Shown piece after piece: positions 1,342 through 11,802 of a stretch of 64,000 nucleotides of DNA. Every line of letters starts with the position of its first letter. The stretch's first letter is position 1. The notes beneath the pieces are model-generated. The model saw nothing but the letters and a program-made list of their open reading frames with translations. It was not told where the DNA came from and did not search any database. The DNA lies in NCBI GenBank assembly GCA_964016885.1, contig OZ024740.1, positions 48,670,001-48,734,000 on the forward strand. Reading direction: 5' to 3'. The DNA comes from Eledone cirrhosa (taxonomy: Eukaryota). The position numbers and the translations under genes were made by a program.

Positions 1342-1445
1342 AAAATCTAGAAAAGAACAACATTAGTGTTTGGGTAGACACTGCTGACATAGGAGCTGGT
1401 GCTGACTTTCTTATAAAAATTGGACAAGCTATCATTGAGTGTAAA
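1342..1445 (+). CDS. TIR/HEAT-repeat protein, first coding exon visible in window (TIR domain, part 1; gene is 5'-incomplete)
   Basis: Pyrimidine tract + CAG acceptor at 1339-1341, GTAAGT donor at 1446. Translates (phase 1) to NLEKNNISVWVDTADIGAGADFLIKIGQAIIECK, the typical TIR 'L...G/N.SVW.D..DI..G.DF...I.QAI..C' segment. Confidence 0.9.
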
Positions 1446-1758
1446 GTAAGTGAATATCTTGAAGTTGTTTCTTGCTTTTGAAAATTCTGTTTTATATTCA
1501 TGTGTTGGTTTGTCAGAAACATTTTATGGCAGGAAATAGTTTGTGAAATATTTAATGCTAATAATTTTTTACATTTTCATATTTCATTTCAACTATCAAA
1601 AAGGATAAAAAATACGATTAGAAATTAAGATGTAAGAAGGAAAACAATTTTGATATAATTTTATATATCATCATACTATATATTACAAAATAAACACTGA
1701 AAAGATGCAATAATAAATGTTGTGTCCTGTATGCAGAAGCAACTAGAAACATATTTTA

Positions 1759-2003
1759 AACTAGCAAAAGAGCCCATCGTTGCTGGGCACACCTTTCACC
1801 ACTGTAAATAAAGACCTCTTTCCTCAACATTGCCATCTTTAATAACCCAGAACTCTGCTATTTTAGGGGAGAGCAAGATTTAAACTATATGTTGACATGC
1901 TTCCGGAGCTAAATAACCTATGTATCAAATTTGAACAAAATTAGATGGAAACTGTTGCAATGCATTGCCTGCATACATTTTCGTTTTTATATATATATAG
2001 ATT
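1759..2003. mobile_element. possible non-autonomous Helitron/Helentron-like element
   Basis: One end AACTAGC followed by a subterminal hairpin (GCCCA.CGTTGC.TGGGC), the other end TTTTTATATATATATAGAT; pattern recognition only. Confidence 0.45.
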
Positions 2004-2574
2004 ACTTAATTTAAAATGTGTAAATGTTTGTTATTGCATACATAACTCTCTAAGTAAACATTCAAGGATGGGTTCTTAGAGCAATTCATTCCAAGGTCAG
2101 CCTCTGTTTTCACAAATCATTTGATTTAACATCAATTTGTTTATATGTAAAAATGTTCATGTATGATTTAATAACTTCCATTTACAGTCATCTGGTTGTG
2201 CTCACTTCTTTACACATATGCATACATACACACACTCACTCTCTTATGTGTATGATGGCTATGCATGCTCTTTTGCAACATGGTATTTAGTGTATAATTA
2301 TATTCAGCATGTGTATGCGTGTATCTAAAGTTTTGCAAGTGGCATTATTTGATGATCGTTCCTGTTTGTATAGCCATTACAAATTATATCGCTTAAAAAG
2401 TAGGTGTGTATGTATGTATGCATGCATGTATGTGTGTATGTATGTATGTATGTATACTATTATAGAGTTTTATCCTAAGCTTTCACTTCCACATTTCCTT
2501 TATATATTTCCACATGGTTGAAGCTAGGTTAGATTTTTTTTTTTTGAAAAATTGAATTGAATGATTATGGATAC

Positions 2575-2725
2575 AAACATGGTTGGGTCTTAAGATGGCT
2601 GCTTAGCAAGTACGTCATCCTGAGTTCAATCCTACTATGCAGTGCTTTGAACAGGTATTTCTAGCATATCTTTGTGCTGACTCAAGCCTTGAGAGGGGAA
2701 ATTTGGTAGAGAGAAATTATGCTGA
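2575..2725 (+). mobile_element. tRNA-derived SINE (family C), degenerate
   Basis: GAGTTCAATCCTACT B-box...AAGCCTTG..GAAATTTGGTAGA; paralogue at 10210-10355. Confidence 0.55.
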
Positions 2726-3001
2726 TAAACTGTACCTATCTATTGTTGGGTAGGAAACAGGCTTAATTCAGTACATGATTTTTGCAGGCCTTTTGGTGGA
2801 GTTCACTTTGTTGCAAGCATTCAGCTTAAGACTCCAGTTTGCTAGAATAATACAATATTTAGAATAGAGTTCAATTGCAGGAGCTGAATCCTGCTTTGAT
2901 GAAGAGTTCTGTCTGAAGCATCAGATCTTTCCTCTTCCTCACAGCAATTCAACTTATCCTACTTTTATAAACTTCTGTACTTTATTATTTGTAAAGGCAG
3001 A

Positions 3002-3180
3002 TGGATTGGCAGTATCGGTAGAGGGTCGGACGCCATGTTTTCCAGCACAGTTACGTCCCTTTACGATCTGAGTTCAAATCCCGCCGAGGTTGACTTTGCC
3101 TTTCATCCTTACGGGGTCGATAAAATAAAGTACCAGTAATGCACTGGGTAATTGCTGGCCTTGTGCCTAAAGTAGAAACA
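3002..3180 (+). mobile_element. tRNA-derived SINE (family A, young), 18-bp TSD
   Basis: A-box-like TGGCAGTATCGG, B-box GAGTTCAAATCC, core TTTGCCTTTCATCCTTACGGGGTCGATAAAATAAAGTACCAG (resembles the Nin/Deu SINE domain); TSD ATTATTTGTAAAGGCAGA at 2984-3001 and 3181-3198. Confidence 0.9.
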
Positions 3181-3839
3181 ATTATTTGTAAAGGCAGAAC
3201 ATCACTAGTTTCCTCAGATGTTACTGTTTCACTATGGCTATAATAGTCTGACATTTACAAAACCATTAACTTCTTACTTGTACCTTTTAGAAAAAAAATG
3301 TTCTTCTTTAATTTATATATTTTCTTATTGCTTGCAAGTTATTTAGATACTCACATGCACATGATTTTTACATCAAAATCTTCATTTGTAGAATAATCTA
3401 TACAAATGTGTTAAATACAGTATTGTTAATATTTTTAAATGAGTATGTAATGGATGGCAATATTATTAGTACAGACTATTGGCTAATGCTTTGCTCTATT
3501 TGTGCCTTTAACTTGTAATATCCTGTACTGCACGAAACAGCATTAGCAGGACATTCTTGAAAAAGGCAATAATTAATACAGCAAATGTTTACATCAATCT
3601 GTCCAATAGTAAAGATACTATAAACATTTGAATTAGCAAATTCATTTTAAAATAAACATGAGATGTTCACAGTTAAACTAAGCTCAAATCCAACTATGGG
3701 TCAACTTGGCTTGTTCATCTCTATAGGGTCTATACAAAGAACAAGTACTGATAATAATTCAGTTAATATCTATTTCCCCAAAAAATTGTGACTTGGCGAT
3801 CAATGTAAAAAAATTGATTATTCAAACATATTTTTACTC

Positions 3840-3870
<31 letters not shown>

Positions 3871-3895
3871 TTTTTATTCTTCTTCTAACTTTCAG

Positions 3896-9344: not shown

Positions 9345-9476
9345 AATTTTGCACTCTGGATGGAATTGTTACATGTTTGTGGCAAAGGATAGAAGACCAG
9401 GCACGGGAAAGTTATGCTATGAAAGAAGTGTTTAACATAAATTCTCATGTCCGGGTAGAAGCCATCGAAAATCTTA
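9345..9476 (+). CDS. TIR/HEAT-repeat protein exon (start of HEAT region)
   Basis: TTTTAG acceptor, GTAAGA donor; 2+129+1 nt. (E)FCTLDGIVTCLWQRIEDQARESYAMKEVFNINSHVRVEAIENL. Confidence 0.88.
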
Positions 9477-10209
9477 GTAAGAAATTTTTTTTATTTTTGC
9501 TATTTGTATAAAGTATATTATATAGCAAACCAAACTGCTTTATTAGTTTGTCTTTATATTCAACACCTGTAGCTGTCCACATGATTAGTTTGTTAAATAC
9601 ACTTCACCTTCAATAACTCCAATCAATATAATTCACCAATATACCTAATAGGGACTAGCTGACCCTGTAGAAATTCCATGGTTTAATTAGAAACAGCCAC
9701 TAAATATTAACGATTAATAGGATATTTTTAATATCTTACACACACACACATTACATATACAACAAAATAAATTGAATAAATTTAGTAATTTACTGAAACT
9801 ACCAAAATGGAATATTTTTACTCATAATTTGAGGATAAACAATATTTTTTTGTAAAAGTAATCTCTCACCCCCCCCTCCCACATCCCTTTTCCATAAAGA
9901 TCACCACTGCCACTGTCTCTCTGTTTCTCATAGAAACACACATACACACTCTTACCAGGATGTTTTTCTGATGGGGATATTGCTTAGAAACAATATCAGC
10001 ATAAAGAAGTTTGCAGTGACTGATACACACACACACATACATATATAGTGGTCATCTACCAAATTCAGTCACAAAGCATTGGTCAGTCCAAGACAATAGT
10101 AAAAGACCATTGTATTATATTTAAAGTAAGTCAGGATAGCTGGTTTCTTAGTTTGTATTTATACCTGGAAGAGTTAGAACCAGGATTGCAGAAAAAGCCT
10201 CAAACATTG

Positions 10210-10355
10210 TTCATGTGGTTAAGAAATTTGCTTTGAAAATATATGGTTTGAGGTTCAATCCTACTGTATGGAACCTTGTGAAAATCTCTTTTACCTTAAT
10301 CTCAGGTTGACCAAGCTTTGTGTGAAATTTAGAGGATGGAAACTATGTGGAAGCC
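10210..10355 (+). mobile_element. tRNA-derived SINE (family C), degenerate
   Basis: GTGGTTAAGAA...GGTTCAATCCTACTG...GACCAAGCTTTGTGTGAAATTT...GGAAACT; an inverted 3' piece lies at ~10040-10110. Confidence 0.55.
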
Positions 10356-10539
10356 TATTTGATGAACTGTATTTGTTCTTTGATGGTGGATTTAGTCTGT
10401 CATGCAGTTTAACTGTTACAGTATTGGCTTTATAGAAACATTTTTACCAATAATCTTCAAGGTTGTACAAGTGAATGGATTTCAGTCCAACTTCTTCAGG
10501 GGCTCTTCACAGATGTACCACTTTAATAGTTCTAATACA

Positions 10540-10762
10540 TGCCATGACAAATAACACCCAGTCCATTTTGTAAAGTGGTAGTAATGGTGCCACAATAAAT
10601 GCTCTAAAGTGGTTGGCATTAGGAAGAGCATCCAGCAATAGAATCCAAGCCAAAAATGGAATATATAAGCAAATTGTCGTCTGACTGGTCTAGCTTCAGA
10701 ACATGACAACCTGTCAAAACTATGCAAGCATGGAAAATAGACATTAAATAGTGACAATGAGG
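10540..10762 (+). mobile_element. RTE LINE 3' UTR fragment
   Basis: AAAGTGGTTGGCATTAGGAAGAGCATCCAGC and ATGCAAGCATGGAAAATAGACATTAAAT match the family 3' UTR seen at 23720-23990. Confidence 0.6.
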
Positions 10763-10896
10763 ATAGAGAGAAACTGTTTTCTAGATTAGCTTTTATACTG
10801 AATGTCATGTAAATAGGAATTCTAAAATGTTTATAACAACACCTGACTTCACTCTGTCTTAATATCTAAACCATGATTTTATTTTCTATTTTAAAG

Positions 10897-11137
10897 GTAA
10901 ATTCAAAAGCCGAGAAGTTGTTGATGCCTTAATCTATCTAGTAAGGAATGACGAAGAACCAAATGTCCGTACTGTTGCAGCTATTTGTCTTGCTCAAACT
11001 GGTGCTACTGATGATGTAACAATTCAAGCACTAATTGATGTTCTTGAAGACAAAGATCGTTTAGTGAGAGAAGCTGGATGTTTAGCTCTTGGGCGTTCCC
11101 AATCACAAAAAGCTGTACCTACTCTTTTAGAATTATG
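10897..11137 (+). CDS. TIR/HEAT-repeat protein exon (HEAT repeats)
   Basis: TTAAAG acceptor, GTAAAT donor; 2+237+2 nt. KFKSREVVDALIYLVRNDEEPNVRTVAAICLAQTGATDDVTIQALIDVLEDKDRLVREAGCLALGRSQSQKAVPTLLEL(W) has repeated L...L.D....VR..A...L (PBS-lyase-type HEAT) units. Confidence 0.92.
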
Positions 11138-11642
11138 GTAAATTTTTCATAGTTTTAAATATTTTTCACTTTTAGCTTTATAAACTATATATTTTCTAGA
11201 TAAAGATGTAATATGTAGCACAAATGTTTCCCAGCAATGTGCACCATGTGTTGGAGTAGTTTTTAGAGCACATCCCCCTTACCATCCAGGGTAATGTATT
11301 TGCCATTGTCTGTCATGACAATAAAATAGAAACTATTGGGGGGGGGGGGGGGCTTATATGATTATACTTCTAACAGGGACCCCTAAACTGATGGTAGAAA
11401 GGGATAAAGAAACTGGATACCTAATCTGAATATTTCTATAATTGGTTTTATTTCTTACTTTATTGACATCAATGAATATTTCTTGTAAAGTGCTGTTAGG
11501 ATTAGAATGGATTATTTTTCATATCATTCTTAATTTCTGGTTTAACACAGTCCAGATTTAAAAAAAAAAAAAAAATTTAGAATGTTAATTTTAAATCTTG
11601 ATTTTTGTCTTAATGTTTCAAGTGTTATTTTATTTTTTGCAG

Positions 11643-11802
11643 GCGAAATGATGTGATAGCTGATGTCCGAACAGCTGCAGAAGTGGCCTTGAAACAGATT
11701 GGTGGTGATGAAGTAAAACAAGCAATGCATGTCACAGAAATGCTGGGGAGAGAAATACATGAACTTACAAAATTCGCAGAGAAAGAACCAGGAAATACTT
11801 GA
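11643..11802 (+). CDS. TIR/HEAT-repeat protein, terminal coding exon
   Basis: TTGCAG acceptor; RNDVIADVRTAAEVALKQIGGDEVKQAMHVTEMLGREIHELTKFAEKEPGNT*, with TGA at 11800-11802 followed by an AT-rich 3' UTR. Confidence 0.92.

Follow-up and report, generated by a model that had tools for sequence, protein, structure and literature searches.

SARM1 and C. elegans TIR-1 join a soluble TIR domain, with a glutamate at the catalytic position, to a helical-repeat domain, and in SARM1 the order is ARM-SAM-TIR. TRAM (TICAM2) is an N-myristoylated TIR adaptor that, to our knowledge, lacks a HEAT or EF-hand-like region. Cat1 and AbTIR are bacterial TIR NAD+ hydrolases with sensors and contexts of their own. 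The invertebrate ecTIR-DC family 11 comprises proteins of 429-499 aa in which a TIR is followed by an Armadillo-type repeat region, with no transmembrane segment drawn (PMC6321704 Fig. S1); the descriptions of the family that we draw on from PMC6321704 and PMC5549309 mention no enzyme motif, myristoylation motif, EF-hand-like middle or glutamate-less paralogues. The gene described here shares the family 11 layout; it also has the enzyme motif, a myristoylation-type start and a probable EF-hand-like middle, and some of its relatives are glutamate-less paralogues.

The locus is a confirmed ten-exon gene of the octopod Eledone cirrhosa, spliced into one open frame. Eight of its exons lie in the window, the 64,000-nucleotide stretch of contig OZ024740.1 that we analyzed. 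Each is preceded by AG and followed by GT, except that the last ends in a stop codon, and the start phases across the series from 1342 to 11802 are 1, 0, 2, 1, 2, 1, 1 and 2. Joined, they read through 386 codons and one terminal stop, whereas the other two frames contain 29 and 51 stops. The first-pass annotation had proposed this phase-matched GT-AG series and placed the N-terminus outside the window, and both proposals hold: two further coding exons, of 145 and 21 bases, lie upstream, and the form that starts at Met-Gly (MG) is a complete product of 435 aa. The splice junctions are based on colinearity with orthologues rather than on RNA reads, and the same colinearity rules out a chance joining of exons. 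The features are as follows.

G000:C1:48632263-48632283, upstream of the window: coding exon of 21 bases
G000:C1:48662945-48663089, upstream of the window: coding exon of 145 bases with the MG start and TIR strand A, ending in phase 1
1342..1445, + strand: first in-window coding exon, TIR strand B and BB loop
3896..4041, + strand: coding exon spanning TIR strands C and D and, between them, helix C, which carries the catalytic-position glutamate
3950..3952, + strand: codon GAA for the glutamate at the catalytic TIR position (E102 in the 435-aa form, E101 in P0002)
5543..5655, + strand: coding exon, TIR strand E and helix E
6437..6563, + strand: coding exon, weakly conserved linker, then the start of the EF-hand-like domain
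7032..7171, + strand: coding exon for the central part of the probable Cbl-type EF-hand-like domain, whose loop has no canonical calcium ligands
9345..9476, + strand: coding exon running from the last part of the EF-hand-like domain through a connecting helix to the first HEAT helix
10897..11137, + strand: coding exon, PBS-lyase/alphaRep-type HEAT repeats with a conserved DRLVRE motif
11643..11802, + strand: final coding exon, with the fourth HEAT repeat, a conserved helix at the C-terminus and the TGA stop

By homology to a labelled member, the gene belongs to ecTIR-DC family 11. Its product is identical to Trichoplax TrispH2_006851 at 168 of 402 aligned residues (41.8%), and our search recovered P0077 (E 5.9e-120, 92% of the query), whose cluster includes RDD40005.1, the same Trichoplax protein. 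TrispH2_006851 was labelled ecTIR-DC family 11, 'TIR Armadillo', in 2019 (PMC6321704); our assignment rests on that label, the family having been defined in Gerdol et al. 2017. The direct orthologue is LOC115211707 of Octopus, another octopod (XP_029636231 / XP_029636223), annotated as uncharacterized with no assigned function, its two isoforms (430 and 437 aa) differing at the N-terminus; the Eledone product matches it at 372 of 430 residues (86.5%). The family is low in copy number and, by these identities, slow-evolving; it extends to placozoans, ctenophores, sponges, one choanoflagellate, lancelets and tunicates, with no named arthropod, nematode or vertebrate match among 86. The idea that this is an uncharacterised, non-standard architecture survives in part: our literature searches found no functional study of the family, but the architecture had already been catalogued. 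Orthology to a characterised family, which the first-pass annotation had named as the outcome that would undo its proposal, comes close to applying, given the annotated Octopus orthologue; the family is named, not characterised.

To define the architecture, we combined profile searches with a predicted model. From its N-terminus, the protein consists of the TIR, a linker, a helical domain in the middle, four HEAT repeats and a C-terminal helix. Pfam matched both domains that the first-pass annotation had named: the first two in-window exons each match TIR_2 weakly alone (E 0.0019 and 0.0026), exon 10897-11137 matches HEAT_2 (E 6e-14), and the full-length Octopus orthologue matches both (TIR_2 3.6e-20, HEAT_2 1e-18). 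TIR_2 and HEAT_2 occur together in 43 of 43 family members, and in P0002 they span residues 32-156 and about 290-400, respectively. The model displays four helical repeats, with the BB loop (residues 63-66) at pLDDT under 50. A soluble TIR, an EF-hand-like middle and about four PBS/alphaRep-type HEAT repeats, as first proposed, are thus borne out, the EF-hand-like call being of moderate strength.

That call concerns a domain whose best match is the EF-hand part of Cbl (Pfam Cbl_N2); with E up to 1 allowed, 20 of the 43 members match it, the best at 1.4e-4. Structural comparison by VIA gave Z 8.8 against Cbl over 87 aligned residues (rmsd 3.9, next row 6.8), which, like the other matches, is consistent with Cbl but not decisive for a helical domain of this small size; Foldseek also ranked Cbl first, but at a non-significant E of 0.44, with nothing at E 0.001, and in the ESM Atlas the best score was 0.77, with no named family. 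Identity to the Cbl tyrosine-kinase-binding domain is 9-12%, and neither a four-helix bundle nor an SH2 domain was detected. The middle domain is probably an EF-hand-like fold of Cbl type; canonical calcium ligands are missing from its loop, and calcium binding is improbable. Conservation of the HEAT region equals or exceeds that of the TIR (0.66 versus 0.61), which fits a scaffold too, and the region carries a conserved charged surface formed by D354, R355, R358, E359, W381, R382, N383 and D384. The name FAM65A in three database entries (P0005, P0051, P0052) raised a RIPOR/FAM65 link, which we judged to be transferred annotation; a HEAT-region search among longer proteins gave 3 matches among 821 candidates, and neither the name RIPOR nor a FAM65 domain occurred in any of them, which is weak evidence on the point.

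The gene is not SARM1. Its TIR comes first and its HEAT repeats are C-terminal, and it differs further in its four short PBS-type repeats, EF-hand-like middle, myristoylation-type start and lack of SAM domains. No SAM domain was found at E up to 1 in orthologues or among the 25 families listed for 43 members, the predicted model offers no space for one, and SARM1 matches to the family cover the TIR only. Trichoplax, moreover, has a separate SARM1-like protein (PMC6321704).

We next turned to the TIR domain itself. Through family member P0168, the Eledone glutamate aligns with those of Cat1 (WCWDEL) and AbTIR (WTNYEL), which we take to be the catalytic residues of those enzymes; when SARM1 was aligned by phmmer, its glutamate and that of the family fell at different positions. 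Among solved structures, the family profile finds its best TIR matches in Cat1 (E 9.5e-9), AbTIR (2.9e-5) and SARM1 (2.2e-4), followed by TLR15 (2.8e-3), although the bacterial matches are distant (E 1e-8 to 1e-5) and confined to the TIR. Structural similarity, computed from the model, is high to Hydra TRR-2 (Z 16.2), TIR-1 (16.1), SARM1 (16.0), MyD88 (15.4) and IL-1RAcPb (15.3), with TRAM a weaker match than SARM1 or MyD88 (Z 12.0); scores so closely tied fail to separate enzymes from adaptors.

Across 90 aligned relatives, the position holds glutamate in 80, glutamine in 9 and a gap in 1; the first-pass placement of a glutamate at the catalytic TIR position is right. As a sign of an enzyme it says little alone, being common to most non-TLR animal TIRs. 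In a screen of 61 isolated animal TIRs, whose conclusions are termed speculative by the preprint itself, 12 were active in E. coli; IL-1R9, IL-1R10 and TLR2 carried the glutamate without activity, and the active TIRs mostly made cADPR (bioRxiv 10.64898/2026.04.20.719644). Among 76 rows, the 70 with glutamate largely keep S/A36 (59), H37 (56), D60 (59), F/Y70 (61) and Y/F97 (59), whereas the 6 without it keep 1, 0, 1, 1 and 1, respectively. Pocket positions thus decay along with the glutamate, a contrast that rests on about three events, as 4 of the 6 rows form one clade. Main copies retain the glutamate; it was lost in one paralogue clade of bivalves (100% support), in one of gastropods and in single rows.

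The N-terminus offers a further clue to function. The 145-base exon starts MGHKIS, with Met-Gly at the start and serine at position 6; the myristoylation consensus is a Met-Gly start with serine or threonine at position 6. MG stands at the start in 30 of 76 rows and within 25 residues in 37, and serine or threonine occupies position 6 in 33 of those 37, against a background of 20% (27/30 among relatives that start with MG). These MGxxxS tails are otherwise unalignable from the choanoflagellate to tunicates, and some of the starts add a cysteine. An early MG is absent from 39 of 76 rows, some of which are incomplete models. The MG-starting form is accordingly predicted to be N-myristoylated, and the longer form, which includes the 21-base exon, is predicted to mask that glycine. 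None of the papers found on myristoylation concerned this family, judging by title and abstract. The conserved MGxxxS start, the exon predicted to mask its glycine, the probable Cbl-type middle domain and the repeated glutamate-less paralogues are the features newly described here.

Overall, we give an even chance to a TIR enzyme held at the membrane by a lipid anchor, which, once clustered, would turn NAD+ into an ADP-ribose-type signal. In such a protein, the myristoylated MG form would tether the TIR at the membrane, and the conserved HEAT surface may bind a partner or ligand that gathers TIR domains there. The clustered TIR would then cleave NAD+ to an ADP-ribose-type messenger, more likely a cADPR-like signal than bulk NAD+ loss, and the glutamate-less paralogues may serve as regulators. 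The role could be epithelial defence or sensing; ecTIR-DC 11 is reported as elevated in mussel gills (PMC5549309).

The same anchor would also suit a non-enzymatic sorting or bridging adaptor that works as TRAM does: the tethered TIR would contact Toll-like receptors or MyD88, the HEAT repeats would recruit downstream proteins, and the glutamate would be structural. We regard this as possible but less likely than the enzyme. The MGxxxS start is compatible with it, as is a TIR fold tied with those of MyD88, TIRAP and IL-1R, and in another group of paralogues (Octopus P0139, Lottia, Patella, Lingula) the glutamate persists although the strand A and BB-loop motifs have degenerated. As the preceding aspartate is still more conserved (89 of 90 rows), the motif may be retained for structure. 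Inactivity of 49 of the 61 glutamate-bearing TIRs screened (bioRxiv 10.64898/2026.04.20.719644), the adaptor or regulator role hypothesised for ecTIR-DC proteins (PMC6321704) and the elevation of the family in mussel gills alongside MyD88 and STING (PMC5549309) point the same way. Yet NAD+ hydrolases are the closest TIRs by sequence, the paralogues' pocket residues decay with the glutamate, and the family occurs in a choanoflagellate and in Trichoplax, the latter without true TLRs (PMC6321704).

The reading nearest to that of the first-pass annotation is an NAD+-depleting executioner analogous to SARM1, in which the HEAT repeats would keep the TIR inhibited; binding of a metabolite or a pathogen ligand would release it, with cell or neurite death as the outcome. 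The likeness of its TIR to SARM1 and TIR-1 in fold and to SARM1 in sequence, and the charged surface of its repeats, are consistent with this, but there is no SAM domain for ring pre-assembly, and the repeats, only four, short, C-terminal and of PBS type, match alphaRep proteins and not the ARM domain of SARM1. Trichoplax has a distinct SARM1-like family (PMC6321704), and NAD+ depletion was not seen with most active animal TIRs (bioRxiv 10.64898/2026.04.20.719644); we consider this reading unlikely. Less probable still is a membrane-anchored, calcium-linked protein, enzymatic or not, that signals in ciliated or secretory epithelia outside immunity, its TIR serving housekeeping. Low copy number and slow evolution, unlike expanding immune receptors, would fit it, as would the MG-plus-cysteine starts and the lack of a named arthropod or nematode match among 86. 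Named vertebrate matches are equally absent from those 86, however, and vertebrates possess motile cilia; nor does the EF-like loop of the Eledone gene carry canonical calcium ligands. The elevation in gills, a ciliated organ (PMC5549309), speaks for it.

As a locus, this is an ordinary gene whose orthologue in Octopus is annotated and whose family is named; what makes it interesting are family-level features rather than this copy. The family is a good test case for whether animal TIRs besides that of SARM1 use NAD+-derived messengers to signal. It is small, soluble and low-copy, and its conservation spans a choanoflagellate, lancelets and tunicates; natural glutamate-to-glutamine paralogues are built-in controls, and the predicted lipid anchor indicates where to look. 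At its furthest, and we think this rather improbable, the membrane-tethered enzyme would be a pre-animal, lipid-anchored TIR cyclase making cADPR or an isomer at invertebrate epithelial membranes, switched between membrane and soluble forms by an alternative short first exon that hides the myristoylated glycine, and tuned by catalytically dead paralogues of repeated origin: an animal second-messenger pathway that would be independent of TLRs, SARM1 and CD38.

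The eight exons that the first-pass annotation had read as one frame are present and establish the gene model: joined, they give 386 codons with a single, terminal stop, and all introns are GT-AG. The coding exons, in one joined frame between GT-AG introns, are as follows.

1342-1445, plus strand, coding exon
3896-4041, plus strand, coding exon
5543-5655, plus strand, coding exon
6437-6563, plus strand, coding exon
7032-7171, plus strand, coding exon
9345-9476, plus strand, coding exon
10897-11137, plus strand, coding exon
11643-11802, plus strand, last coding exon

In this 3.0 Gb genome, searching the 200 kb 5' of the window with the Octopus and Argonauta orthologues (tblastn) revealed an extra coding exon 7 kb before it (G000:C1:48662945-48663089), which encodes TIR strand A. 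Its ATG immediately follows the acceptor AG, its peptide opens MGHKIS, and its end phase of 1 is that of the first window exon. A 7-codon exon resembling the beginning of the longer isoforms in Octopus and Argonauta was sought in the upstream sequence; a single match emerged (G000:C1:48632263-48632283), with a phase-0 GT after it. With two upstream exons and eight in the window, the coding exons number up to ten. Aligned with its Octopus vulgaris orthologue, P0002, the 435-aa form is identical at 372/430 positions; two gaps are of one residue each, one lying three residues away from a junction, and a third, of three residues, is at the C-terminal end. Against P0046, which co-clusters with a cuttlefish protein, 275/428 positions are identical and every junction is gap-free. 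The contigs that encode the whole of P0046 do not exceed 2,951 bases and are probably spliced transcripts. In the tree (FastTree, 78 rows), the window product falls together with its Octopus and Argonauta counterparts, local support 100%, which by homology places the source among octopod cephalopods.

The window also holds repeats and mobile elements.

24647-27000, minus strand, broken LINE-like fragment with endonuclease-/reverse-transcriptase-like frames (translations read by eye)
7929-8573, minus strand, broken LINE-like fragment with endonuclease-/reverse-transcriptase-like frames (translations read by eye)
16300-17702, minus strand, putative Penelope-like element, two frames resembling reverse transcriptase and GIY-YIG nuclease (our own reading)
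about 3000-3190, 12595-12790 and 13020-13125, short interspersed repeat copies spotted in the sequence

The 7929-8573 fragment is intronic, between exon 7032-7171 and exon 9345-9476. A 62-bp tandem satellite (27782-63996; about 585 copies, 90% matches) occupies the final 36 kb, up to the window end; its copies are for the most part spaced by 62 bases or a multiple of that, with no higher-order period seen.

The annotated order of a TIR and about four PBS-type HEAT repeats is likewise established. Pfam finds TIR_2 (E 3.6e-20) and HEAT_2 (E 1e-18) in the Octopus orthologue, and both in 43/43 family members. For P0002, AlphaFold (mean pLDDT 79.6) models, after a disordered tail (1-25), a TIR of five strands and a helical middle domain joined by a linker that is disordered too (172-188); four helical repeats, resembling alphaRep/PBS-type HEAT proteins, and a long last helix follow. 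The EF-hand-like label for the middle domain drew moderate support, and we treat that fold as predicted. Folded separately (pLDDT 87.0), this domain best matched the Cbl tyrosine-kinase-binding domain in VIA (Z 8.8, rmsd 3.9, 87/100 aligned), followed by calmodulin (Z 6.8). Foldseek also ranked Cbl first, yet at E 0.44, and the rows listed are Cbl and other EF-hand proteins, judged from titles; Pfam Cbl_N2 appears in 20/43 members when E values up to 1 are allowed, the lowest being 1.4e-4. By our reading, the second EF-hand-like loop of this gene has no canonical acidic ligands, so calcium binding is not predicted.

The architecture, first read as outside the standard metazoan TIR set, belongs to a family named in 2017. 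Trichoplax TrispH2_006851, identical to the window protein at 168/402 positions, is labelled ecTIR-DC 11, 'TIR Armadillo', 429 aa (PMC6321704 Fig. S1). A word-based profile search scoring 8000 candidates returned 86 proteins with E of 1e-10 or lower, including a Trichoplax cluster with TrispH2_006851. Its named matches cover molluscs, annelids, nemerteans, a brachiopod, a bryozoan, acoels, an echinoderm, lancelets, tunicates and Trichoplax; among these named rows, many others being nameless, none is vertebrate, arthropod, nematode or cnidarian. A further, exhaustive search yielded 486 proteins with E of 1e-30 or lower, many of them matching in a single domain; its best 150 contributed a full-length family member, that of the choanoflagellate Salpingoeca urceolata. 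TIR+HEAT_2 proteins that share the same motifs are recorded for Trichoplax, for the ctenophore Mnemiopsis and for a sponge, Vazella, in PMC13142454 (its Supplementary Table 1), each marked 'not in supported clade'; PMC5549309 describes raised ecTIR-DC 6, 11 and 13 in mussel gills. Three divergent full-length members from JGI records (P0158, P0164, P0172), possibly of unicellular eukaryotes, have intact TIR motifs; P0158 and P0164 have MG plus cysteine close to the start. Among the next-best TIR matches to the family profile in the best 150 are four long proteins (P0142, P0148, P0150, P0184) that each have between four and seven TIR_2 domains; three of them also have WD40 repeats.

The N-terminus carries a recurrent motif. 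MG opens 30/76 rows and lies at most 25 residues in in 7 more, and 33/37 MG rows have S/T at position 6, against a background over the first 40 residues of 6% G and 20% S+T. This pairing is the N-myristoylation consensus and predicts a lipid anchor. The motif spans Salpingoeca to lancelets and tunicates, while the remainder of the tails is unalignable; since kin share motifs, the counts are not independent events. Because 13/76 rows start M-Y-K/R (gastropods, Solemya and two annelids included) and Octopus has isoforms of 430 aa (MG start) and 437 aa (leader), we infer two first exons, one of which would expose the glycine and the other mask it.

The proposal of an enzymatic TIR is plausible, as the family glutamate (E102 of the 435-aa form) aligns with those of Cat1 and AbTIR via member P0168; the SARM1 alignment is out of register around the motif. 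Of 90 rows, omitting four TIR-less fragments and three partial matches, 80 have E at this position, 9 have Q and one is gapped. All nine Q rows are a pteriomorph bivalve paralogue without MG starts, and the five in the tree form a single clade. In the scallop/oyster paralogue clade (P0059-P0066, P0075, P0115, P0130), Gln naturally replaces Glu, the pocket motifs have decayed and MG starts are absent, making it by sequence a candidate pseudo-enzyme. Q or L occupies the position in 5/6 proteins of a gastropod paralogue clade (P0133, P0162, P0163, P0165, P0194, P0199), which have long N-terminal tails, several with an MG start. Salpingoeca has D, one unnamed tree row R, and the Vazella row also R (PMC13142454 Supplementary Table 1). 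A second, distant paralogue in the genome (G000:C25:2747039-2765271, minus strand; 71-85% identity to Octopus LOC115226206, whose protein has no MG start) retains the glutamate, with Asn replacing the Asp just before it.

In the 76-row alignment, each of five pocket-side positions is retained by 56-61 of the 70 rows with E, as against 0-1 of the 6 without; four of those six are one clade. Against such joint decay, a second paralogue set keeps E despite decayed strand A and BB-loop motifs, and the fold search tied enzyme and adaptor TIRs. A TRAM-like scaffold is a serious, if less probable, alternative. The glutamate is also widespread: a 2026 preprint (10.64898/2026.04.20.719644), whose main text does not mention HEAT, EF-hand or octopus, reports it in most non-TLR animal TIRs, describes glutamate-bearing TIRs that are inactive, and has 12/61 TIRs assayed active, mostly yielding cADPR without NAD+ depletion. 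The SARM1 analogy first drawn fails as regards the build of the protein, and a SARM1-like executioner is unlikely; a non-immune signalling role, epithelial or ciliary, is given slightly less weight still.

We consider most likely, at about an even chance, a membrane-anchored signalling enzyme. The MG form would be tethered by myristate and a basic tail, the conserved HEAT surface would take a partner or ligand and so cluster the TIR domains, and the clustered TIR would cut NAD+ to a cADPR-type messenger. The interest of the gene rests on family-level features not found in print in the literature searched, the founding family paper lying outside its reach, and ecTIR-DC 11 could offer a direct test case for TIR enzymatic signalling in animals.
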